Source: a virus. From it: a stretch of DNA of 64,000 nt. The position numbers were made by a program, and so were the translations under genes. Shown here piece after piece: positions 1,005 through 45,766 of the stretch (position 1 is its first letter; every line of letters begins with the position of its first letter). Where the stretch lies: positions 1 through 64,000 of the IMG/VR virus record IMGVR_UViG_3300037088_000882; one strand, 5' to 3'. The notes under the pieces are model-generated. The model worked only from the letters and a program-made list of their open reading frames with translations. It searched no databases and had not been told where the DNA came from.

Positions 1005-4000
1005 ATGGCTGATCCGACCCCTGCAAATATGAAAGCAATGGAAGAAGCGCTAAAAAAAGTACAGCGCCAACTGGAAAATGTTGAGAAAGCCACTAAAAAG
1101 ACAACGCAAAATATTAATAAGAATTTCCAAAATGCTGCAGGTGGTACTGAATATTTTGGAAAAAGATTAGAATATGCTGAAGAGACTATAGACGATATAG
1201 CCAAGAATATGAAGAAAATCCATCTGGAAAAAGGATTGCCAGTAGGGAAAGTTATTATAGTAAACAAGCAGATGGCTGTTCTTCAAAAAAGAATTGAACA
1301 TATTAAAAATTTGAAGGGGCCTTTTAATGCTGCTTCTTTAGATAAACAGAAAAAAAGAATTGCTACGATAACGAAAGAAGCTGTTTCTCTAAATAAAAAT
1401 GTTTCTGGTGGTGTAAAAGTATCAACTCAGCGATTTGCTGATATGGCCGAGGGTGCTGGATCTTTTAAAGATTTATTTCATTCTTTAAAAGGTTCTCCTA
1501 AGGATATGCTAAAAACAGCAGAAGGGGCTGGAGAAGTTGCAGATAAATTAAAAAGTATGGGAGGAATGGCTAAAGGTTTAGGTAGTGCTCTTGGAGGAGT
1601 TTCTAAAATCTTTGGAGGTCCAGCGGGTATAGCTATGGCTGCGGGGAAAGCCTTATTTGATATAACTGTACAAGCAGATACCTTTGTTAAAAATGCTAAT
1701 AAAGGGTTTGCTAGTATTCGTGGACCTGATATTATGACGAGTGATGTTGAAGGGCAATTTAAGGAATTTAATGACCAGATTTATAACGCTTCTGCTAATA
1801 TTAGGGATGGCTTAAATGCAGATGCCATAAGAGGTTTTATGGAAGCCTTGAGTCAATCTGGTTATAATATAACTAGGTTACAAGGGGGCCTTACCACTTA
1901 TAGAACCGCTGTGGATGTAGCAGCAAAAGCCAGTAAAAGTTTAGGGGTTGATATAGTTCAGGTTGGTGCTTATATGGGCACTTTACTGAATGATTTTAGA
2001 GAGGATTTAGCAGAAGTCGATAAATCTTTTGTTCAAGTTGCTTTTGACGCTAAAAAATCAGGTATGTCAACTAATAATTTTTGGAATACCGTTCAGAATG
2101 CTACAGCATCTTTAACTCTTTATGGTGTTAAAATTGATTCGGCAGGAAAGTTACTTAAAACTTTCAGTCAAAATCAAATAGGGGGTGTAAAAGATGCCGA
2201 GGCTGCTGCCCAGGATATGTTATCTGTATTTAAATCTACCGATCGTGCTCAAAGTGCTTTAATCATGCAGATGTCTAAGTCTGGAGGGTTCGATCTTGCA
2301 GGGGCCTTTCAAAAAAAGGCTGGAGAACAAGGGACTAAAGCAACTAAAATAAAAGAAGAAATTAAACTTGTTGAAGCTAAGCCCAGAACTGAAGAAAATT
2401 TATCTGCTTTGGATAAATTGCATACTGATCTTGTAAATGCTGAAAAAGATCAAGCTAATTATACAAAAGCAACGATTTTGGCCCAAAAAGGAGATTATGT
2501 TGGATTAGGTACTTATTTTGGGGATTTGGCCAATAATGTATCCGATATAGTTCCAGCCTTGCTTAAAGGTATGATTCCTGGGTTAACTAATATAGGTAAG
2601 ATAGATGAGCATAATTTGGCTGTTTTAGAAAAGACGAGTCAATTAACAGGGTTATCTGTTCCGGCTTTACGAACAATTGTTAAGAATGCTCAATTTGTAA
2701 ATAAGGAATTAAGTGATCTTTCGGATTACATGGGTGATTTTGGTGGTAAATTAATTGATGCCACGGATGAGACAAAAAAAGGTATTGGGGATGCTATAAC
2801 TGAAATGGATAGTGGTAATGAAAAAGGTTTTGAAGATCTTAATAACGCTTTATTACAAGCTGGAATGGATCCAGTCCAGGCTAAGGAAATGGCAAATTTA
2901 GCTAAAAGTAATGAAGTTATTAGGGCTATTCTTAAGAAGACTTTAGTGCAGGATAAAGTTGTTGCTAAAAAAGAATTGGTTAATTTACAAAAGACACTTA
3001 AATCGGATGATGTTAGTAATAAGGCTGCTTTTAATAGCATTGATGACCAAAAGGCCTCTGCTGCAGAAATGTCTAAGAAAAGTGATGATACCTTTAAAAA
3101 GATAACTTCTTTGACTCTTTCAAGCCAAGAGACCATGGATATCATGGGAGATGAGGCTAAATACCGTTTATATAGTACTACTTTATTTAAAGGTATGAAT
3201 AAAGGTATAGGCTTTATAGCTAAATTTTTGACTAAGGCTTTTGGAAGTAAAGTTAAAGGTGTTGATGAGTATATAAGTCCTGAAGAAGAAGAAAAAATGC
3301 AACAGGACGCTTCAGATAAAATTACAAATGAAATAAAAAATGTAAAACCTGATGATGTTACAAAAGCTGTTGATGATCTTAATAAAAAGTTTCCCAAGGA
3401 TGCTAAATTAAGTCCTTCTCTAATGCAGGCTATAGTTGGTCATGAATCTGGTGGAAATGCTATGGCCGTTCCTAAAGATAAAACAGGGAATGTCTTATCT
3501 ACTGCTCGTGGTCCAATGCAAGTTATTAAAGATACTGCACAAAGGGTTGTTAAAGAATCAGGAGACGTTCTGGGAGTTAAGGGAGGTAAAAGTGGAACTT
3601 TACCTACTTATGGATCAGATTATAAAATGACTGCTCCAGGAACAGTCGACCTTACAGATACTAAAACAGGATTAGCTGTTGGAGGTCGAGTACTTCAAAA
3701 AGAGTTAACTAAATATGGTGGAGATCCAAAGAAAGCTATTGCCGCTTATTTTCAAGGTGACACAGTTGTAGATAATGCAATAAAGGCAGATAGTAAAGAT
3801 TGGATGAGTCATTTAGTTAATGATAAGGGTGAAAATGTATCTTCTCAAGTTGCTGCTTACATAAATGATGTTAATAAGCGTATTATGGATTCAGCCATAG
3901 GATCTACTCCTACGGCTACTCCTACAAAAGCTACCATGGGAATGCCTGAAAGGGTGACCTCTCCTGGTATTGTTCAGCTACATTCTGGAGAATCTATTTT

Positions 4001-4202
4001 TCCTAGTGCTGGTAATTCTAGAATGCGGACAACACCTCTTTTAAATGGAGGTGCTATGAATAGTGCTTTAGGCGGAGCTGTAGGTGGTGGAGGGAAAACC
4101 ATTAATATAAACGTTTCGGCTACAGAAAAAGATCTGGCCCAAAGAATAGCTAATGAAGTTAGAGGAGTACTATATAAAGAACAATTGACAGGAATGGCAT
4201 AA
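1005..4202 (+). CDS. Tail tape measure protein with C-terminal lytic transglycosylase (SLT) domain
   Basis: 1065 aa, Ala/Lys/Gly-rich helical body; SLT motifs AIVGHESGG, ARGPMQV and AIAAYFQG at about nt 3400-3780. Confidence 0.85.
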   Translation: MADPTPANMKAMEEALKKVQRQLENVEKATKKTTQNINKNFQNAAGGTEYFGKRLEYAEETIDDIAKNMKKIHLEKGLPVGKVIIVNKQMAVLQKRIEHIKNLKGPFNAASLDKQKKRIATITKEAVSLNKNVSGGVKVSTQRFADMAEGAGSFKDLFHSLKGSPKDMLKTAEGAGEVADKLKSMGGMAKGLGSALGGVSKIFGGPAGIAMAAGKALFDITVQADTFVKNANKGFASIRGPDIMTSDVEGQFKEFNDQIYNASANIRDGLNADAIRGFMEALSQSGYNITRLQGGLTTYRTAVDVAAKASKSLGVDIVQVGAYMGTLLNDFREDLAEVDKSFVQVAFDAKKSGMSTNNFWNTVQNATASLTLYGVKIDSAGKLLKTFSQNQIGGVKDAEAAAQDMLSVFKSTDRAQSALIMQMSKSGGFDLAGAFQKKAGEQGTKATKIKEEIKLVEAKPRTEENLSALDKLHTDLVNAEKDQANYTKATILAQKGDYVGLGTYFGDLANNVSDIVPALLKGMIPGLTNIGKIDEHNLAVLEKTSQLTGLSVPALRTIVKNAQFVNKELSDLSDYMGDFGGKLIDATDETKKGIGDAITEMDSGNEKGFEDLNNALLQAGMDPVQAKEMANLAKSNEVIRAILKKTLVQDKVVAKKELVNLQKTLKSDDVSNKAAFNSIDDQKASAAEMSKKSDDTFKKITSLTLSSQETMDIMGDEAKYRLYSTTLFKGMNKGIGFIAKFLTKAFGSKVKGVDEYISPEEEEKMQQDASDKITNEIKNVKPDDVTKAVDDLNKKFPKDAKLSPSLMQAIVGHESGGNAMAVPKDKTGNVLSTARGPMQVIKDTAQRVVKESGDVLGVKGGKSGTLPTYGSDYKMTAPGTVDLTDTKTGLAVGGRVLQKELTKYGGDPKKAIAAYFQGDTVVDNAIKADSKDWMSHLVNDKGENVSSQVAAYINDVNKRIMDSAIGSTPTATPTKATMGMPERVTSPGIVQLHSGESIFPSAGNSRMRTTPLLNGGAMNSALGGAVGGGGKTININVSATEKDLAQRIANEVRGVLYKEQLTGMA

Positions 4203-32464: not shown

Positions 32465-32621
32465 TAGATTGCGTTCAAGTTACTAAAGCATTTACCCCTT
32501 TCGGGATACTTGTCGATTCTCAAGATCGATGCCTTACCAATTTGGCTATATTTCCATTCGGAAACACTCGGAGTCGAACCGAGATTAGTAATGTAGGCTT
32601 TAATTGTAAAAACGCAATCTA
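32465..32621 (-). ncRNA. Circularly permuted tRNA-mimic RNA 1 (YrlA/Y RNA-like) with a TGA anticodon-like loop
   Basis: 11-bp terminal stem TAGATTGCGTT/AACGCAATCTA; order is T-arm, closed acceptor hairpin (TGTTTCC-GAAT-GGAAATA), D-arm, then TCGAT-CTTGAGA-ATCGA. Confidence 0.75.
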
Positions 32622-33195: not shown

Positions 33196-33211
33196 TTAAT
33201 CCCCTCAGTAT

Positions 33212-33259
33212 AAAACAAAAAACCCTGCTTGATCTTTAGAACCAAGCAGGGTTTTGTTT
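33212..33259 (-). terminator. Attenuator terminator A
   Basis: AAAACCCTGCTTG / CAAGCAGGGTTTT stem followed by a T-tract (TTTTTTGTTTT). Confidence 0.85.
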
Positions 33260-33279
33260 ATTTCTTTTTTAACTTTAGA

Positions 33280-33366
33280 TCAAGACAAAATCCTACCCGG
33301 TCCCTTTAGATAGCTAAGGTAATATGATAGACACAAAGGTAAGGATTGAATAGTCTTATTGCTCAT
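33280..33366 (-). CDS. Leader peptide A (28 aa, Leu/Tyr/Cys/Ser-rich) of a putative tRNA-operon attenuator
   Basis: MSNKTIQSLPLCLSYYLSYLKGPGRILS*; ATG is 8 nt after the -10 box; the 3' end can pair with the terminator 5' arm. Confidence 0.75.
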   Translation of the reverse strand: MSNKTIQSLPLCLSYYLSYLKGPGRILS

Positions 33367-33374
33367 GATAACTA

Positions 33375-33403
33375 AATATAACACAGAAAAAATAAAAAGT
33401 CAA
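33375..33403 (-). promoter_or_regulatory. sigma70-type promoter of tRNA operon A
   Basis: TTGACT-17 nt-TATATT with extended -10 TGn. Confidence 0.75.
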
Positions 33404-36859: not shown

Positions 36860-37241
36860 GATTTTCCTTTAAATAAGTGGAGCTACGGGGATTTGAACCC
36901 CGAACTTTCAGCTTGCAAAGCTGACACTCTTCCAATTGAGTTATAGCCCCATTATTTTCTATCTGAATTTCAGATTTCCAGTCTTTTTGTTTCTTTTCCT
37001 GCATTGTTAAACTTCCACCACTTTCCCAGGCAGTACGCCTTGGGTTTCCACACATATCACAGCTACATAGTTTTGTAGTATTTCTAAGTATGTAAGAGAA
37101 ATACCTCAATGTTTTTTCTGTAGGCTTTGAAGAACATAACAATCCTTGAGCACGTTTCTTCCCCTTATTGGCCCCAATAAGGAAACGTTCTCTACGATCT
37201 TTTGGATGAGACATAATGTACCCTTTTCTAGCGTCACTCAC
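36852..37241 (-). CDS. Small basic Cys-motif protein (CSCxxCGNPR) whose reading frame runs through tRNA-Ala
   Basis: Start is GTG 37241 or ATG 37214; Lys/Arg-rich; no stop codon before the tRNA. Confidence 0.6.
   Translation of the reverse strand: MSDARKGYIMSHPKDRRERFLIGANKGKKRAQGLLCSSKPTEKTLRYFSYILRNTTKLCSCDMCGNPRRTAWESGGSLTMQEKKQKDWKSEIQIENNGAITQLEECQLCKLKVRGSNPRSSTYLKENHE
36878..36950 (-). tRNA. tRNA-Ala(TGC)
   Basis: GGGGCTA/TAGCTCC with G3:U70; TCAGC-TT TGC AA-GCTGA; no full CCA. Confidence 0.93.
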
Positions 37242-37287: not shown

Positions 37288-37360
37288 AGCCGATGAGAGG
37301 GCTCAAACCTCCAACTTGCTGATTACAAATCAGCTACTCTATCAATTGAGTTACACCGGC
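37288..37360 (-). tRNA. tRNA-Thr(TGT)
   Basis: GCCGGTG/CATCGGC; GCTGA-TT TGT AA-TCAGC; A19/U56 replaces G19/C56; no CCA. Confidence 0.88.
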
Positions 37361-38661
37361 GTATGAACATATACGTTTTTAATATACTCCAAAGCATCTT
37401 CTTGATTCAAGATCGTCCCCTCGAGTTGTTGGTCCTCGATATCGGTTAAGATAATACCGAACTCTGGGCCTTGTTTAAAGCCCATATTAAGCAAATCCTT
37501 ACCAGTCACGATTCTTGGAGGACGAATTTCTTCTGGCTCATAAGTCTTGAGCTTTTCGATAACGAAATCATAGTTCTCAAGATTCCTATGCGATGATAAA
37601 CAATCTACCCGATGAAGAGCTAAATGATCTTCAATATTAGGTAGAGCCAGAAATCTTTTCAGTCGAGAAACTCTCATTTTCTTCACATGCATAAATTTCA
37701 TGTGGTTTTCGACTAAGTCTGAAATTCGAGTTACGAAATCATTTGAAAATTTCAACCTTTTCAAAATTCCCCAAGCAATATACTTACCCTTGATATCGTG
37801 GCCACTAAACCTTATACGGTCCTCGAAGGTTTGAGTAGGTGGCTTACCCACATCATGCAATAAGGTTGCCATTCTCACCTCAATAGAAGCCTCAGTAGGA
37901 AGATTTTCAAGAGCTTTTATCGTATGCTCGAGAACATCTCCTTCGGGGTGGTATTGAGGTGGTTGCTCACAACCCTTCATGGCCCGGACCTCGGGCAGGA
38001 TATGATCGATTAATCCAGTATCAAAAAGAAGGTTTACTGCCTTCCTGTAATTACCTGCCATAAGAATCTTAGTAAGTTCATCTGCAACTCTCTCGGCCGA
38101 GACCTGGGTTATTTCAAAGGCATGCCTTTGAACTGCCTCTATGGTGCCTGGATCGATTTTGAAATCAAACCTGGCAGAAAAACGTACAACTCTCATCATA
38201 CGTAATTTATCCTCAGCAATACGGTCATCAGGATTACCTATAAGCTTTATGATACCCTTATGAAGATCTTCAATACCTCCAACAGAATCGTAAATCTTAT
38301 CTTCAATTGGGTCATAGAACATCCCATTGATGGTAAGGTCCCTACGTTGAGCATCCTCTTCCATGGTGCAAAAAGAAACGCTATCGGGCCGTCGACCATC
38401 CGAGTACACTCCATCAGTCCTATAAGTAGCTACTTCGACTTCCTGGCCTTCATGGACGACTACAATGACTCCGAAAGCTTTGCCAACTGCAAGAGTCTTA
38501 TCGAATAATTGCTCGACCATTTCGGGACGTGCGTTAGTGGCTATGTCGATATCAGTTGAAGTCCTTTGTAAGAGCATGTCTCGGACATAGCCTCCAGCAA
38601 AGAGAGCTTCATAGCCATGGTCTCGTAATTTTTTAACTACATATAATGCTTGTTGTAACAT
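37351..38661 (-). CDS. cca: CCA-adding tRNA nucleotidyltransferase with HD domain
   Basis: AGGYVRD, DIDIAT, EDAQRRDLTINGM, EDKLRMMRVVRF, YHPEGDVLEHT and LLHDVGK motifs. Confidence 0.95.
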   Translation of the reverse strand: MLQQALYVVKKLRDHGYEALFAGGYVRDMLLQRTSTDIDIATNARPEMVEQLFDKTLAVGKAFGVIVVVHEGQEVEVATYRTDGVYSDGRRPDSVSFCTMEEDAQRRDLTINGMFYDPIEDKIYDSVGGIEDLHKGIIKLIGNPDDRIAEDKLRMMRVVRFSARFDFKIDPGTIEAVQRHAFEITQVSAERVADELTKILMAGNYRKAVNLLFDTGLIDHILPEVRAMKGCEQPPQYHPEGDVLEHTIKALENLPTEASIEVRMATLLHDVGKPPTQTFEDRIRFSGHDIKGKYIAWGILKRLKFSNDFVTRISDLVENHMKFMHVKKMRVSRLKRFLALPNIEDHLALHRVDCLSSHRNLENYDFVIEKLKTYEPEEIRPPRIVTGKDLLNMGFKQGPEFGIILTDIEDQQLEGTILNQEDALEYIKNVYVHTPV

Positions 38662-38993: not shown

Positions 38994-39071
38994 TGGGGTG
39001 GAAGACGGGGCTTGAACCCGCAACCACTGGCTTCACAGGCCAGGGCTCTAGCCAATTGAGCTACCTCCACC
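38994..39071 (-). tRNA. tRNA-His(GTG) with encoded G-1
   Basis: G-GTGGAGG..CTGGC-CT GTG AA-GCCAG..CTTCCAC-C-CCA. Confidence 0.93.
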
Positions 39072-39077
39072 ATAAAA

Positions 39078-39767
39078 TCAGTCTTCTCTTACTTGAACAA
39101 ATTTTTCGATGTATTCTCGATCTTTAGTGAAAATCGGAATGTTTAAATCTACATCCCCATTAACAACACAAAAACCACGTTTCCGCACAACTGGATATTT
39201 ATCGAAATTTATTCCTTTTTTCTGGAATAGTAACTCTTGTATTTCCTTACAAGAGACTTTATTTAATTCCTTGTGTGAAAAGTTTTCTCGCCCTGCCATC
39301 TGGATTGAGTTCCTGGTGGCATCCACTTGTCTCCATATGAAATAGTTTACTACCTCATCCTGAGGAATTGAAAAAACTCTACTATCAAAACAGACGTTGC
39401 TTCCATAGAGTCGAGAAAAGACTGCACTGGCCAAGGAAGCTGATATTGAAATCATTTTTCGTGCATCGTATCCGAACCAGGCATCTGTCGAGATCTTTTT
39501 ATAATCTGTTAAAAGAAAGCTTATTTCGTCGGATTGGCAGTAACAAAAACCGCACCCTTGAATGTCAGCTAATACCGTATTAGCAGTTGCGATCATTTGC
39601 TCGGTAAACTCCATGGACCATCCTTTTCCGAATCTTTTTCTGGTGATGGTGTGGAAGGCCCGGCCATCGATCCTGAGTATTACCGGAATCCGTCTTGGTA
39701 AAGTCCAAGCTGAGACTGATTCATAACGCTTCATGCGATCGCCTAGGTCTAACCTATCACTACTCAT
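39078..39767 (-). CDS. tRNA(His) guanylyltransferase / Thg1-like 3'-5' polymerase
   Basis: RMKRYE, RIDGRAFH, QSDEISFL, FDSRVF and YFIWRQVDATRNSI motifs; adjacent to tRNA-His. Confidence 0.93.
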   Translation of the reverse strand: MSSDRLDLGDRMKRYESVSAWTLPRRIPVILRIDGRAFHTITRKRFGKGWSMEFTEQMIATANTVLADIQGCGFCYCQSDEISFLLTDYKKISTDAWFGYDARKMISISASLASAVFSRLYGSNVCFDSRVFSIPQDEVVNYFIWRQVDATRNSIQMAGRENFSHKELNKVSCKEIQELLFQKKGINFDKYPVVRKRGFCVVNGDVDLNIPIFTKDREYIEKFVQVRED

Positions 39768-40096: not shown

Positions 40097-40182
40097 TGGC
40101 GGAGGCGAGACGAGTCGAACGTCCAAGGCCTTTCGGCCGGCGGTTTTCAAGACCGCTGAATTACCAGTTATCCTACGCCTCC
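40097..40182 (-). tRNA. tRNA-Ser(TGA)
   Basis: GGAGGCG..GCGGT-CT TGA AA-ACCGC, variable arm GGCC-GAAA-GGCC, G73-CCA. Confidence 0.92.
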
Positions 40183-40192
40183 ATATATCTCA

Positions 40193-40265
40193 AGCCCACA
40201 TCCTGGATCGAACAGGAGACCTCATCCTTACCAAGGATGTGCTCTACCAACTGAGCTATGTGGGC
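40193..40265 (-). tRNA. tRNA-Thr(GGT)
   Basis: GCCCACA/TGTGGGC; CATCC-TT GGT AA-GGATG; no CCA. Confidence 0.93.
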
Positions 40266-40268
40266 ATA

Positions 40269-40709
40269 TTACCTTAACCCGTAAAGGTACAGCAATCCTG
40301 CCCATCCACTTGGAAGGCATTCTGGTGCTGTTTCTAATTTCTTTCCGTATTTCACAGCCATTTCTAAAAAATACTTAGCATGAAAGAATGCCTCTAACAT
40401 TGGCCGAGTGTGTTTGAGCCATTCCTTATTATGTTTTGAATCAAATACTTTACCAGTTCCTTCCTGGTATATTTGATCGAAGTCATCATTAAACATAACT
40501 CCTACAGGAGCTAAACTTTTTAAAGTTTCTATTATCTTTTGAGTGCTTCCCTGTATGCCGTATACTTTAAAAGAGGAATGGTAGAAACGGTAAACGTAAT
40601 CCTCATAACACCAATGGTCATTAATATCTTCCAGGAGCTTTTCAAGCTCGGGGAGTCTTGCCTTGATATTTACCAAGAGGTCTTTACTAAGATCTTGTCT
40701 CTCACTCAT
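40269..40709 (-). CDS. Hypothetical protein (146 aa; start corrected to ATG 40709)
   Basis: AAGGGAG RBS before MSERQDLSK; the track's longer N-terminus crosses the terminator and tRNA-Trp. Confidence 0.7.
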   Translation of the reverse strand: MSERQDLSKDLLVNIKARLPELEKLLEDINDHWCYEDYVYRFYHSSFKVYGIQGSTQKIIETLKSLAPVGVMFNDDFDQIYQEGTGKVFDSKHNKEWLKHTRPMLEAFFHAKYFLEMAVKYGKKLETAPECLPSGWAGLLYLYGLR

Positions 40710-40729
40710 AAGAACTCCCTTTTTAAAGA

Positions 40730-40791
40730 TGGCAGGAGTGGATCGAACCCCCATCGTCGGTTTTGGAGACCGGGTGCTTAGCGACACTCCT
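40730..40791 (-). pseudogene. Truncated tRNA-Trp(CCA), 62 nt
   Basis: Intact acceptor AGGAGTG/CACTCCT-G-CCA and CGGT-CT CCA AA-ACCG; D-loop and the 3' strand of the T-stem are deleted. Confidence 0.75.
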
Positions 40792-40793
40792 AT

Positions 40794-40835
40794 AAAACAA
40801 AAAACCCCGCCGAATCTTTCGATCGAGCAGGGTTT
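40794..40835 (-). terminator. Attenuator terminator B
   Basis: AAACCCTGCTCGATC-GAAA-GATTCGGCGGGGTTT followed by a T-tract; homologous to terminator A. Confidence 0.85.
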
Positions 40836-40864
40836 GATTTGAAACACTTTATTTTTACTTAACC

Positions 40865-40963
40865 TTACTCGATCTCCAATATAGTATGCCAATGTGCCCA
40901 TGATGTCGATGTGGTGGCCATTGCATTATTAGAGGATGATGTAGTAAGATTAATTGTTTTCAT
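40865..40963 (-). CDS. Leader peptide B (32 aa, Thr/Ser/Ala/Trp/His-rich) of a putative tRNA-operon attenuator
   Basis: MKTINLTTSSSNNAMATTSTSWAHWHTILEIE*; ATG is 7 nt after TATAAT; the stop region pairs with the terminator 5' arm. Confidence 0.8.
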   Translation of the reverse strand: MKTINLTTSSSNNAMATTSTSWAHWHTILEIE

Positions 40964-40970
40964 GGTTATA

Positions 40971-40999
40971 ATTATACTATATATTTCGGTTCGTGTCAA
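40971..40999 (-). promoter_or_regulatory. Consensus sigma70 promoter of tRNA operon B
   Basis: TTGACA-17 nt-TATAAT. Confidence 0.88.
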
Positions 41000-42729: not shown

Positions 42730-44081
42730 TTTTTAAATCCTAAACTTTTTGGTTCTTTGAAATGATTTTCGCATAATTTCTTATGGTCCTTAATAGCTGT
42801 TAAAATGGTATATGTCTCTTCATTTGTTATATTGTTACGTTTAAACTTCATTTTAGCCAGTTTTACGAACTCCGCTACAAAAGCCATACTCGAACCCTCT
42901 AATTCTTTAGCAAGGTCTCTAAGGGCTTCTTCTGATGTTATGTGGCTTGTGTAATCTATGCTGATATTGTAATACTTCAATAATTTATATATGTTATCCG
43001 GTGTAGGCTTTTCAACCTTATAGATTTTATCGAAGCGACCTGGTCGCCCTATTAATGCTTCATGTAAAATATCTGGAAAATTGGTGGTAGCAAAAAGAAT
43101 AATATCATCGAATTGGTCTACTCCGTCCATCCCTTTGAGAAGGCTGTGTAGTGAAATGCTTCCATAGTCCTTATCCATTTCACCGCTTTGAAAGGCCACA
43201 AATTTATCTATATCTTCCAAGACACATACACGAGGTTTTACTTCTTCTGGATAGAGTAAATAATCTATGCTGCTTTCATGTATATTATCAAAATTCAAAG
43301 TGCCATCCCGTTCAATTGCTCTTCTTATATCAAAATGCTCGAGTCCGTAATACTCACAAACTTTACGAATAAGAAGAGTTTTGCCATTGCCTGGGCTACC
43401 TGCAAGCATGTATCCACGACGCCATGCTAATTTAAGATCGTTTTTATAAAGATCTCGACTGATTAAAAAGTTATCGATATCTTCTCGAATATTCTTTAGT
43501 ATTTCATCTGGCAGAAAGATTGAATTAAAAGCATCCTTATCGCAGTTTTGTTCGGTAAGTTTTATTGCTCTGAGTTTTTTTGAGAATCTTTTAATAAAAG
43601 AGGTGATAGTGCTTTCATTCCACTCTTTATTTTTAGGGTCAAAGACAATCCATATATTGTTTGTGCTGCTAGATACGTAGGATTCATCGTAACTTAAGTA
43701 GTAAACTCCAGGCTCGATCTCGGCAAAACCGTTAGGGCATCGTAAGTCTAACCCGAGATTATTCCCATAAATATTTACATATGAAAAAGCAATTCCACCA
43801 TATGAGGATATTTTTGGGCCTATGTATGTTTCTAATCTCTTTGTATCAAAAGGATTATTCATCAATAAGCTATTCTCAGATAGACCGTATTTATTTAAGA
43901 TTAAGGCTATGCGGTTGAAATAGACTAAATCTGTGAGTGGGTCGTAAAGGGGTAGAATTTTTGGAATGTTTTTGATTTTTAAACCTAATTTAGGTTTTAC
44001 ATTACGTTGAGGCTTCCACCCTAGTCCTATTCCTGGTGGTGTGGCAACAGCTTGAGTTGTTTTACAGTATTGAGGATTCAT
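42726..44081 (-). CDS. AAA+ ATPase
   Basis: Walker A GSPGNGKT, Walker B VLEDID, SRH ATTN..RPGRFD. Confidence 0.9.
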   Translation of the reverse strand: MNPQYCKTTQAVATPPGIGLGWKPQRNVKPKLGLKIKNIPKILPLYDPLTDLVYFNRIALILNKYGLSENSLLMNNPFDTKRLETYIGPKISSYGGIAFSYVNIYGNNLGLDLRCPNGFAEIEPGVYYLSYDESYVSSSTNNIWIVFDPKNKEWNESTITSFIKRFSKKLRAIKLTEQNCDKDAFNSIFLPDEILKNIREDIDNFLISRDLYKNDLKLAWRRGYMLAGSPGNGKTLLIRKVCEYYGLEHFDIRRAIERDGTLNFDNIHESSIDYLLYPEEVKPRVCVLEDIDKFVAFQSGEMDKDYGSISLHSLLKGMDGVDQFDDIILFATTNFPDILHEALIGRPGRFDKIYKVEKPTPDNIYKLLKYYNISIDYTSHITSEEALRDLAKELEGSSMAFVAEFVKLAKMKFKRNNITNEETYTILTAIKDHKKLCENHFKEPKSLGFKK

Positions 44082-45766
44082 GACATTTTTACCTTATAAA
44101 GTTTAGTTCCATCCGCAAAGTATACTTCCACGCCATTATGGTATAACCTTGTTGATGAATTGATTGGTGAATTTTTTATTTCCTTTTTATGGTCCTTATC
44201 TCTAAATAATACTGTTTTATCATCGTCGGCTAAAATATTTAATCCATTTTCTAGTGAGATAAAATTAACTGCCCCAGGACCCGTCATGGGTTCTATCCAA
44301 ACTGAATATTTTGAGAAATTTTCATTAAAGATCAATATGTACTGCCAAAAATTTCCACCTTTTTCTACAATAAGAACAGAGGTGTGTCCTTCATGTTTTG
44401 CATCTATTATTCGAAACCCATTTAACTCGCTTACCAGAATATTGACGCAATGTCCCGGACTGTAGGGTACAGCAAGATGGCATTTCATGAAATCGTCTTG
44501 AGTTATTATGCCAGGGAAGATCTTATAGGAAGGGCATAGGTTGCTTACGGGCTTAGTTTGATGTAGGAGTCTACCTAATCGTTCAAAAGAGTTCTCTACG
44601 AGTTCTCCGTTGTTTATAGAATAGATTAAACCATTCGCACCAAACATTGCTTCAGCTGACATGACACTTACAGGTTTTTTAGATAAATCATAGAAGCATA
44701 TTTGCCCATCTAATCCTGGATGACCTATAATTGGGTCTTCTCCATAAATAGATAACATTTCAAGATTGTTTCGGCCAGTTTTAGTGAAATTAAATACTTG
44801 TTTATCCTCTTTATAAACCCCTGAATTTGTTATGGCATAACGGGTTTTATCGAAGAAGTAAATTTTTTGTATTGTTGATGAGAATTCTTTTACCAGTTCC
44901 ACTATAAAGCCTCCTTGACTGGAGACTGACTTTCCTTGAGAAATTGCAATAGAAACCAAATCAGCATAAGGAGGAATTGATCTTTCTCCTTTACTGAAAA
45001 CAGCCTTGTACCAATCAAGATGTTTTTTAGGAATTACTGAGAAATCCTGGCAGGACTTGGGTAAAGTTACGTCTTTATCGAAAACTGAGATTCCCTTATC
45101 CATTCTTTTACCCCATTCAGCAGGAGCAAAATTAGGATGAAAACCTTTATAAGGGTGTATGCCAACATACATCTGGAAGGTAACTACTGCAAAACTAAAC
45201 CAGTCAGTAAGTTCAGTGAACACCCCTTGAGGAGCCTGTCGGTCTCGTACGGATTCCATCAAGGCCATGGCCGGGAATGACGGAGTTTTCCAAGAATCCA
45301 CATCGATACAATAAACAATTTTCATGTCACTGCTTATTAGAAAATTCATTTCATTATAATCGACTATAAGAAATTTGTTTTTATGAACAAATTCTAATGT
45401 TTTTTGCATGCCCGAGATCATTTCAATTATATCTTTGGGGCTAATGTTTTTTTCATCTCTGAAGTTTTTAGTAAAAATTTTACACAGAAATTCTGTGCTG
45501 TCGACATAGGGCATGGTAAACCCTATAGGCATCATATCTTTTGGATCATATAAGGGCTCGATGGGGGCGAGAATATTGTCTCTATTAAGGGTCCCGAGTT
45601 CCTGGATCTTGGCCACAGGGATCATTTGTTTAGGGTCGTGGTATATTTTATAAGCTATTGAATCCTTACAATAAACAACGCCTTGGCCTCCCGCAGCTTT
45701 ATAATCTTTATCGGTAAGGGTTATAATTCCACTTTTCTTTTTTACTTTGGTTACTTTTGAATTCAT
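44078..45766 (-). CDS. Protein kinase-like protein (TerY-P-triad type) with beta-rich C-terminus
   Basis: GGQGVVY, AYKIY, DYNEMNFL, IDVDSW and TDWFSFAV..HPYKG motifs. Confidence 0.75.
   Translation of the reverse strand: MNSKVTKVKKKSGIITLTDKDYKAAGGQGVVYCKDSIAYKIYHDPKQMIPVAKIQELGTLNRDNILAPIEPLYDPKDMMPIGFTMPYVDSTEFLCKIFTKNFRDEKNISPKDIIEMISGMQKTLEFVHKNKFLIVDYNEMNFLISSDMKIVYCIDVDSWKTPSFPAMALMESVRDRQAPQGVFTELTDWFSFAVVTFQMYVGIHPYKGFHPNFAPAEWGKRMDKGISVFDKDVTLPKSCQDFSVIPKKHLDWYKAVFSKGERSIPPYADLVSIAISQGKSVSSQGGFIVELVKEFSSTIQKIYFFDKTRYAITNSGVYKEDKQVFNFTKTGRNNLEMLSIYGEDPIIGHPGLDGQICFYDLSKKPVSVMSAEAMFGANGLIYSINNGELVENSFERLGRLLHQTKPVSNLCPSYKIFPGIITQDDFMKCHLAVPYSPGHCVNILVSELNGFRIIDAKHEGHTSVLIVEKGGNFWQYILIFNENFSKYSVWIEPMTGPGAVNFISLENGLNILADDDKTVLFRDKDHKKEIKNSPINSSTRLYHNGVEVYFADGTKLYKVKMS

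Follow-up and report, generated by a model that had tools for sequence, protein, structure and literature searches.

The region at 40794-40999 of the DNA described here carries, on the minus strand, a consensus promoter, a short leader ORF, and an intrinsic terminator, and it stands directly ahead of a block of tRNA genes interspersed with genes for tRNA-maturation enzymes. This arrangement, called module B below, belongs to an uncultured phage represented by a single contig of 92,412 bp with a G+C content of 36.9%. The window, i.e., the whole stretch of DNA presented here, is the first 64 kb of that contig. ARAGORN detects 20 tRNA genes in the whole genome, grouped in four clusters, and a Pfam search identifies a Nudix hydrolase, a Thg1-like tRNA-His guanylyltransferase, a CCA-adding enzyme, a Dam-type methylase, and a dCMP deaminase.

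The phage lineage appears very divergent, since the ten largest proteins (up to 1966 amino acids; encoded within window positions 1-30300 on the plus strand and at 44078-45766 on the minus strand) have no match in PHROGs at 1e-5. In Pfam, the same ten proteins return only an SLT lysozyme-like domain (1005-4202) and a weak protein-kinase match (44078-45766). The last ORF of the contig (genome 91975-92412, plus strand) is open at the contig end and lies in frame with the ORF that runs from base 1 (1-1002), so the contig is probably a circular or complete genome cut within a gene.

Module B and the operon behind it

All features of module B and its operon lie on the minus strand. The promoter consists of a -35 hexamer, TTGACA (40994-40999), and a -10 hexamer, TATAAT (40971-40976), separated by a 17-nt spacer, and the ATG of the leader follows 7 nt past the -10 element, at 40963. 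A first-pass annotation made from the sequence had described exactly this geometry and the coordinates bear it out; the promoter is also the sole 12/12 match to the sigma-70 consensus within 12 kb. From the promoter geometry, the transcript is predicted to start about 7 nt past the -10 element, at the ATG or 1 nt before, which would make the mRNA leaderless or nearly so. A Shine-Dalgarno sequence is absent, so any translation of the leader would be leaderless, and efficient leaderless initiation in the host is an assumption.

The leader ORF (40865-40963) comprises 32 codons and a TAA stop codon at 40867-40865. Its codons 16-27 (40883-40918) form a regulatory run that specifies only Ala, Thr, Ser (as TCN), Trp, and His. 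The intrinsic terminator lies 30 nt past the stop codon and is a 14-bp hairpin (40834-40803; -18.1 kcal/mol) made up of a 5' arm (segment 3, 40821-40834), a GAAA loop (40817-40820), and a 3' arm (segment 4, 40803-40816). It is followed by a T-tract (40794-40804) of six T, one G, and four T that runs into a tRNA-like element, and the terminator with its T-tract thus directly adjoins the first tRNA-like gene of the block. Two further segments complete the set. Segment 1 (40943-40953) is the partner of segment 2 in minimum free energy (MFE) folds of the untranslated RNA, and segment 2 (40859-40875) spans the stop codon and has two alternative partners, segment 1 or the terminator 5' arm, the latter pairing being the antiterminator. 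The stretch from the terminator to the tRNAs holds no promoter that scores above 9/12, so the tRNAs of block B should depend on read-through.

The first element behind the terminator (40730-40791) is a degenerate tRNA-Trp(CCA)-like sequence, recognized with a lowered ARAGORN threshold and by alignment to L026, a syntenic metagenomic contig. A tRNA at 40791-40730 is absent from the default ARAGORN output and from Rfam RF00005 matches at E<=1; the lowered threshold calls a tRNA-Trp(CCA) there with a mismatched acceptor or T stem. Relative to the canonical tRNA-Trp of L026, the element keeps the anticodon arm, the T loop, and a 7-bp acceptor helix, which carries a compensatory change, and it has two deletions, one of 8 nt in the D loop and one of 15 nt in the area of the variable region and the T stem. 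Judged from this alignment, it is probably decayed or at least noncanonical, i.e., a pseudogene or a noncanonical tRNA.

The first protein gene of the operon encodes a 146-amino-acid protein (40269-40709) that matches no Pfam family. Its relatives, of which a metagenome scan returned 140, are found very often inside phage tRNA clusters, making it a candidate tRNA-related factor. Behind it follow tRNA-Thr(GGT) (40193-40265) and tRNA-Ser(TGA) (40097-40182), the Thg1-like tRNA-His guanylyltransferase (39078-39767; PF04446, 1.9e-22), and tRNA-His(GTG) (38994-39070). The block continues with a CCA-adding enzyme of the poly(A) polymerase family that has an HD domain (37351-38661; PF01743, 1.9e-37) and tRNA-Thr(TGT) (37288-37360), and it ends with its last tRNA gene, tRNA-Ala(TGC) (36877-36950). 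These five tRNA genes are called by both ARAGORN and Rfam.

Leader codons and tRNA sets

The codons of leader B match the tRNA genes that follow it. Ala, Thr, Ser, Trp, and His account for all 12 of codons 16-27 and for 18 of codons 7-27, both counts being those of the first-pass annotation. That annotation had further pointed to five Ser codons that are all TCN, with no AGY, and to Thr codons suited to both downstream isoacceptors. A codon count reproduces the Ser pattern, and Thr is written as ACA four times, ACT twice, and ACC once ahead of tRNA-Thr(TGT) and tRNA-Thr(GGT). Its claim that cognate tRNA genes for all five amino acids follow the leader holds for Thr, Ser, Ala, and His; the Trp gene is the degenerate element missed by standard detectors. 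Given that degeneracy, the two Trp codons of leader B may be a relic that monitors a decoder the phage no longer supplies. Two TGG codons in a leader of this kind have a chance probability of 0.04.

Set against the codon usage of the long ORFs of the genome, the match is far above expectation. The five downstream tRNAs detected by ARAGORN read 17 of the 31 leader B codons (binomial P = 1.3e-5), and the figure rises to 19/31 when TGG is counted (P = 9e-7). The whole genome contains 426 ATG ORFs of 20-45 codons, counted over six frames, and each leader was ranked within these by the match to its own tRNA set; leader B ranks first, with or without Trp. In the frame of the leader B ORF there are 17-19 matches in 31 codons, compared with 2-9 in the other five frames, which indicates that the signal sits in the codons and not in base composition.

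Module B has sister modules. At the head of each of the four tRNA clusters in the genome stand a promoter, a short ORF, and a terminator. The combination of a promoter, an ATG within 12 nt, a short ORF, and a strong terminator occurs genome-wide only at modules A, B, and D, whose terminators are the most stable in the genome, and module C has a longer 5' region than these three. Module A (33208-33403, minus strand) has a promoter and a near-leaderless 28-codon leader rich in Leu, Tyr, and Cys (ATG at 33366), and its 15-bp terminator is a homologue of the one in B. It precedes genes for tRNA-Cys, five tRNA-Leu isoacceptors, and tRNA-Tyr, and its leader ties for first of the 426 ORFs. Within this part of the window, a subthreshold tRNA-like match (32503-32555, minus strand; 24.8 bits) is flanked by two tRNA-Leu genes.

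The other two modules lie outside the window. Module C (genome 88262-88490, minus strand; L018 about 1763-1990) has its leader at 88415. The tRNAs encoded behind this leader, for Asp, Met, Ile, Phe, and Ser(GCT), read 14 consecutive codons of it, and the leader again ranks first of 426. Ser is written only as AGT or AGC in this run. The Ser codon family therefore tracks the isoacceptor in the two modules, with five TCN and no AGY before tRNA-Ser(TGA) in B and no TCN and four AGY before tRNA-Ser(GCT) in the C run (Fisher P = 0.008).

Module D (genome 89405-89592, plus strand; L018 about 2906-3093; leader at 89439) shows the same RNA geometry as the others despite a codon mismatch. Its leader is rich in Gly, Thr, Ile, Val, Arg, and Lys, and only 3 of 24 codons match its own tRNAs, which are two tRNA-Glu and a tRNA with a TAT anticodon. 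The latter (genome 89870-89950, plus strand; L018 3371-3451) scores 37 bits in Rfam and was missed by ARAGORN. Leader D may be a relic of a larger tRNA cluster, since the homologous module in the metagenomic contig L037 (4394-4590) precedes a 14-tRNA cluster for Cys, Glu, Met, Val, Thr, Ala, Gly, Arg, and Lys that its leader resembles.

The pattern recurs in relatives. A metagenome scan with the 146-amino-acid protein as the query returned 80 loci, 28 of them with tRNAs nearby. L026 is syntenic, with tRNAs for Trp, Thr(GGT), Ser(TGA), His, Thr(TGT), Ala, Ala, and Ser followed by Cys and Leu tRNAs. The contig begins within a B-type leader, one frame of which holds 17 consecutive Ser(TCN), Thr, Trp, Ala, or His codons; a stop codon, an antiterminator strand, and a terminator follow, and the T-tract adjoins the canonical tRNA-Trp. 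Compared with leader B, the order of residues in the peptide is different and the five-residue set is identical, with coding indels of 24 and 3 nt. A-type modules are present in L026, L055, and L037, where the promoter, the position of the ATG, and the pairing strands are conserved and both pairing strands change together.

Leaders of other composition stand ahead of other tRNA sets. In L037, a run of five Ser and two His codons (Ser5-His2) precedes an operon whose only tRNAs are tRNA-Ser(TGA) and tRNA-His, and a Leu/Tyr/Cys leader precedes Leu and Tyr tRNAs. L009 has a Gln/Pro/Leu leader ahead of tRNAs for Pro, Gln, His, Arg, and Leu. In a permutation test with seven module types, the true pairing of leaders to tRNA sets was the best of 5040. 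Searches in other collections gave less. The Nudix protein, a 690-amino-acid ATPase, and the CCA-adding enzyme as queries found no syntenic loci in IMG/VR, and DNA patterns for the junction and for the terminator (the latter with one extra G, which excludes module A) had no match there. A DNA search of an annotated phage collection gave matches at the level of tRNAs only.

The leaders also have similar N termini, with Met followed by A/U-rich Lys, Thr, Asn, and Ile codons (compared at window 40963 and 33366, L026 3035, L055 4723, L037 827 and 1848, and L009 121). This shared stretch may aid leaderless initiation and supply segment 1, or the likeness may come from a shared ancestry of the modules; it could also mean that the peptide has a function of its own.

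Alternative RNA folds and ribosome position

The RNA of module B can adopt mutually exclusive structures around the stop codon. The strand at 40874-40861, which includes the stop codon, pairs at 13 of 14 positions, one of them G:U, with the terminator 5' arm at 40834-40821, and the strand at 40953-40943 pairs with 40869-40859 in an 11-bp 1:2 helix. Both pairings had been proposed in the first-pass annotation, and both were recovered on folding. RNAduplex gives -17.8 kcal/mol for the antiterminator, a value equaled by 1 of 1000 dinucleotide shuffles of the leader, and the complete 11/11 match of the 1:2 helix appears in the MFE and centroid folds alongside the terminator. The leader as a whole has an MFE of -46 with a z score of -4.46. 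A strong pairing partner for the terminator 5' arm lies at or near the stop codon of the leader in each of the four modules, and the fraction of shuffles that do as well is 0.001-0.018.

The effect of a ribosome was modeled by placing its A site on each codon in turn, masking the RNA to 12 nt beyond, and folding the RNA available to that point, with the terminator 3' arm not yet transcribed. For module B, stalls through codon 26 leave the 5' arm in a 2:3 helix of -16.4 kcal/mol; the helix is weaker at codon 27 and lost from codon 28 to the stop codon. The same collapse at the last regulatory codon is found at codon 17-20 in A, codon 22 in C, and codon 21 in D, and in relatives at codon 18 (L026), at codons 17 and 22-23 (L037), and at codon 25-26 (L048). 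Untranslated leader B RNA folds as the 1:2 helix plus the terminator, and when a ribosome occupies the stop codon or its vicinity, segment 2 is covered and the terminator forms in the folding.

Full-length equilibrium folding is more restrictive. For module B, the antiterminator is the MFE structure only for stalls on codons 23-26 (Ala-His-Trp-His) and 4-7, and stalls at codons 8-22 leave a terminator probability of about 0.8. Modules A and D keep the terminator at equilibrium. In module C, most stalls within the run bring the terminator probability below 0.1 and none leaves it above 0.4, and it exceeds 0.9 at the stop codon and in untranslated RNA; C is the cleanest predicted switch of the set. 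The restriction of the antiterminator to a few stall codons suggests that part of the response of B would need co-transcriptional (kinetic) folding. Thus the earlier proposal, in which a ribosome at the stop codon or no ribosome allows termination and a ribosome stalled mid-leader allows read-through, stands for both terminating states and for the 2:3 helix through codon 26, and is narrowed at equilibrium to an antiterminator at codons 23-26 and 4-7. Computation establishes the sequence features and the alternative pairings, along with the statistics and the recurrence of both.

A proposed attenuator and its alternatives

We consider it likely that module B is a ribosome-mediated leader-peptide transcription attenuator heading an operon for phage tRNAs and tRNA maturation. 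Transcription would begin at the consensus sigma-70 promoter, with the RNA 5' end at the AUG of the 32-codon leader. A ribosome that reaches the stop codon would cover segment 2, allowing the 3:4 terminator to form and halting the polymerase a few nucleotides before the first tRNA-like gene. With no ribosome loaded, segment 1 would hold segment 2 and the terminator would form as well. A ribosome delayed on the Thr, Ser(TCN), Ala, His, or Trp codons of 16-27, most effectively on codons 23-26, would permit 2:3 pairing, and this pairing would block the terminator and let the polymerase enter the operon. The output would be tRNA-Thr(GGT), tRNA-Ser(TGA), tRNA-His, tRNA-Thr(TGT), and tRNA-Ala, together with the Thg1-like and CCA-adding enzymes and one further protein. 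Because the output tRNAs read the sensed codons, this would amount to demand-driven negative feedback on decoder supply, in which the tRNAs are probably made only when their codons are read slowly by ribosomes. The transcript start, leader translation, stalling, and conditional termination are the parts of this scheme that we infer.

The alternative that survives best accepts the switch as real and has it sense general translation capacity, or transcription-translation coupling after infection, instead of these particular decoders. Any stall ahead of codon 27 would retain the antiterminator, and module D combines the same promoter, ORF, antiterminator, and terminator geometry with a leader that is mismatched to its own tRNAs. 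A general sensor would not account for the frame-specific codon match of leaders A, B, and C, which is first genome-wide, for the Ser codon family that follows the isoacceptor, or for the leader composition that follows the tRNA set in relatives. Since the D-type leader of L037 resembles its larger cluster, the exception presented by D here may be a relic, and sensing of general capacity is unlikely as the explanation.

It is also improbable, and we place it next in order, that module B is an independent small gene, encoding a 32-amino-acid peptide or an sRNA of about 170 nt that acts in trans, with a leaky terminator that supplies the tRNAs through constitutive read-through. The module is a complete unit of promoter, ORF, and terminator, the N termini of the leaders are similar across modules, and in Sinorhizobium, attenuator RNAs and peptides are known to have trans functions once released (PMC6614838, PMC7298713). 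A fixed peptide function, however, would not make composition follow the neighboring tRNA set, and in the comparison with L026 it is the composition of the peptide and not its sequence that is conserved. The stop codon also always lies in or beside the strand that pairs with the terminator 5' arm, even in modules unrelated in sequence.

A direct RNA sensor that works without translation, in which the leader RNA would bind a tRNA in the manner of a T-box or a phage or host protein, would fit the alternative terminator and antiterminator folds and has a precedent in T-boxes as known tRNA-sensing attenuators, but it is highly improbable given that no Rfam family, T-box included, matches 40794-40999 at E<=1, that the codon signal is confined to one reading frame, and that an ATG stands at the predicted 5' end in most modules.

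The leader-peptide attenuator favored here resembles those of enterobacterial amino-acid operons, especially the multivalent leaders for Thr and Ile (thrL) and for Ile/Leu/Val (ilvL and ivbL), and also trpL, hisL, pheL, and leuL. Both have a short promoter-proximal ORF with a regulatory codon run, and both have four segments that form exclusive 1:2, 2:3, and 3:4 helices, with segment 2 at the stop codon. In both, the regulated genes lie behind an intrinsic terminator, and one leader would sense more than one amino acid. The structural features of classical leader-peptide attenuators, the mechanism of which has been described (PMC1183508, PMC3082878), are thus all found in module B, with translation of the leader being predicted. 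The differences are also clear. The enterobacterial leaders regulate biosynthetic enzymes, whereas module B would regulate phage tRNA genes and maturation enzymes. Unlike these leaders, module B has an apparently leaderless mRNA and would sense five types of residue, with a match to anticodons that extends to the choice of Ser codon family. The Rfam leader families for Trp, His, Thr, Leu, and Phe have no match in 40794-40999 at E<=1, and the sister modules give only subthreshold matches to Phe_leader, His_leader, and PyrR, with E values of about 1.

Functional parallels come from control of the translation apparatus itself. In the pheM attenuator, a leader with Phe codons controls pheST, an aminoacyl-tRNA synthetase operon, giving feedback on the supply of charged tRNA. 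Both pheM and module B would place a decoding component for the sensed codons under leader-peptide control, but the output of pheM is a synthetase for one amino acid in a cell and that of module B is a set of tRNAs in a virus. T-box riboswitches likewise choose between terminator and antiterminator by the state of specific tRNAs and control genes of the translation apparatus. They do so without translation, using a specifier codon and the T-box motif to bind uncharged tRNA directly, unlike module B, where the signal is an in-frame codon run. A T-box (RF00230) was rejected for module B after finding no match in 40794-40999 at E<=1. A Phe-codon leader reportedly precedes pheV, a tRNA-Phe gene of E. 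coli. This was not upheld by the MG1655 sequence, where only a promoter lies upstream, directly before the tRNA, and pheV was set aside as a precedent. Full-text literature searches turned up no account of tRNA genes, whether of phages or of other origin, being controlled by a leader peptide or an attenuator.

The reason that phages have tRNA genes is a decades-old question, in which codon compensation is set against escape from tRNA-targeting defenses (PMC10264068, PMC11555353). Phage tRNAs replace or supplement host decoders during infection, as counter-defense or codon supplement (PMC10264068, PMC11555353, PMC12409363). Term searches for leader-peptide or attenuator control of phage tRNA genes did not bring up these papers; in module B, a dedicated cis-acting sensor appears to gate the tRNAs. 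One tentative reading, which we hold as possible and would not yet call probable, is that the module is one channel of a phage surveillance of the host decoding pool. Slow reading of its own codons, e.g., after the action of host anticodon nucleases or other tRNA-depleting defenses, would be the sole trigger of each tRNA block, which would then provide replacement tRNAs along with the Thg1-like and CCA-adding enzymes for repair and maturation. If this is true, the tRNA clusters would form an inducible, self-limiting counter-defense and not a constitutive codon supplement.

A sensor of exactly the served codons would mean that phages regulate tRNA supply by demand, and the leader would then be a compact reporter of decoder shortage for chosen codons. 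Attenuation by leader peptides would be extended to noncoding RNA outputs, to viruses, and to leaderless mRNAs, and the modules would offer natural "checklist" leaders that discriminate isoacceptor families, as with Ser TCN and AGY.

There is also a warning for annotation, in that short ORFs with strong terminators ahead of tRNA clusters may be regulatory. A 210-amino-acid ORF (40269-40901, minus strand) opens within the leader and continues across the terminator and the tRNA-like element to the end of the 146-amino-acid gene. It was rejected as a gene because its homologues begin at the 146-amino-acid form, which has its own ribosome-binding site, and the 210-codon frame is liable to be miscalled by gene callers.
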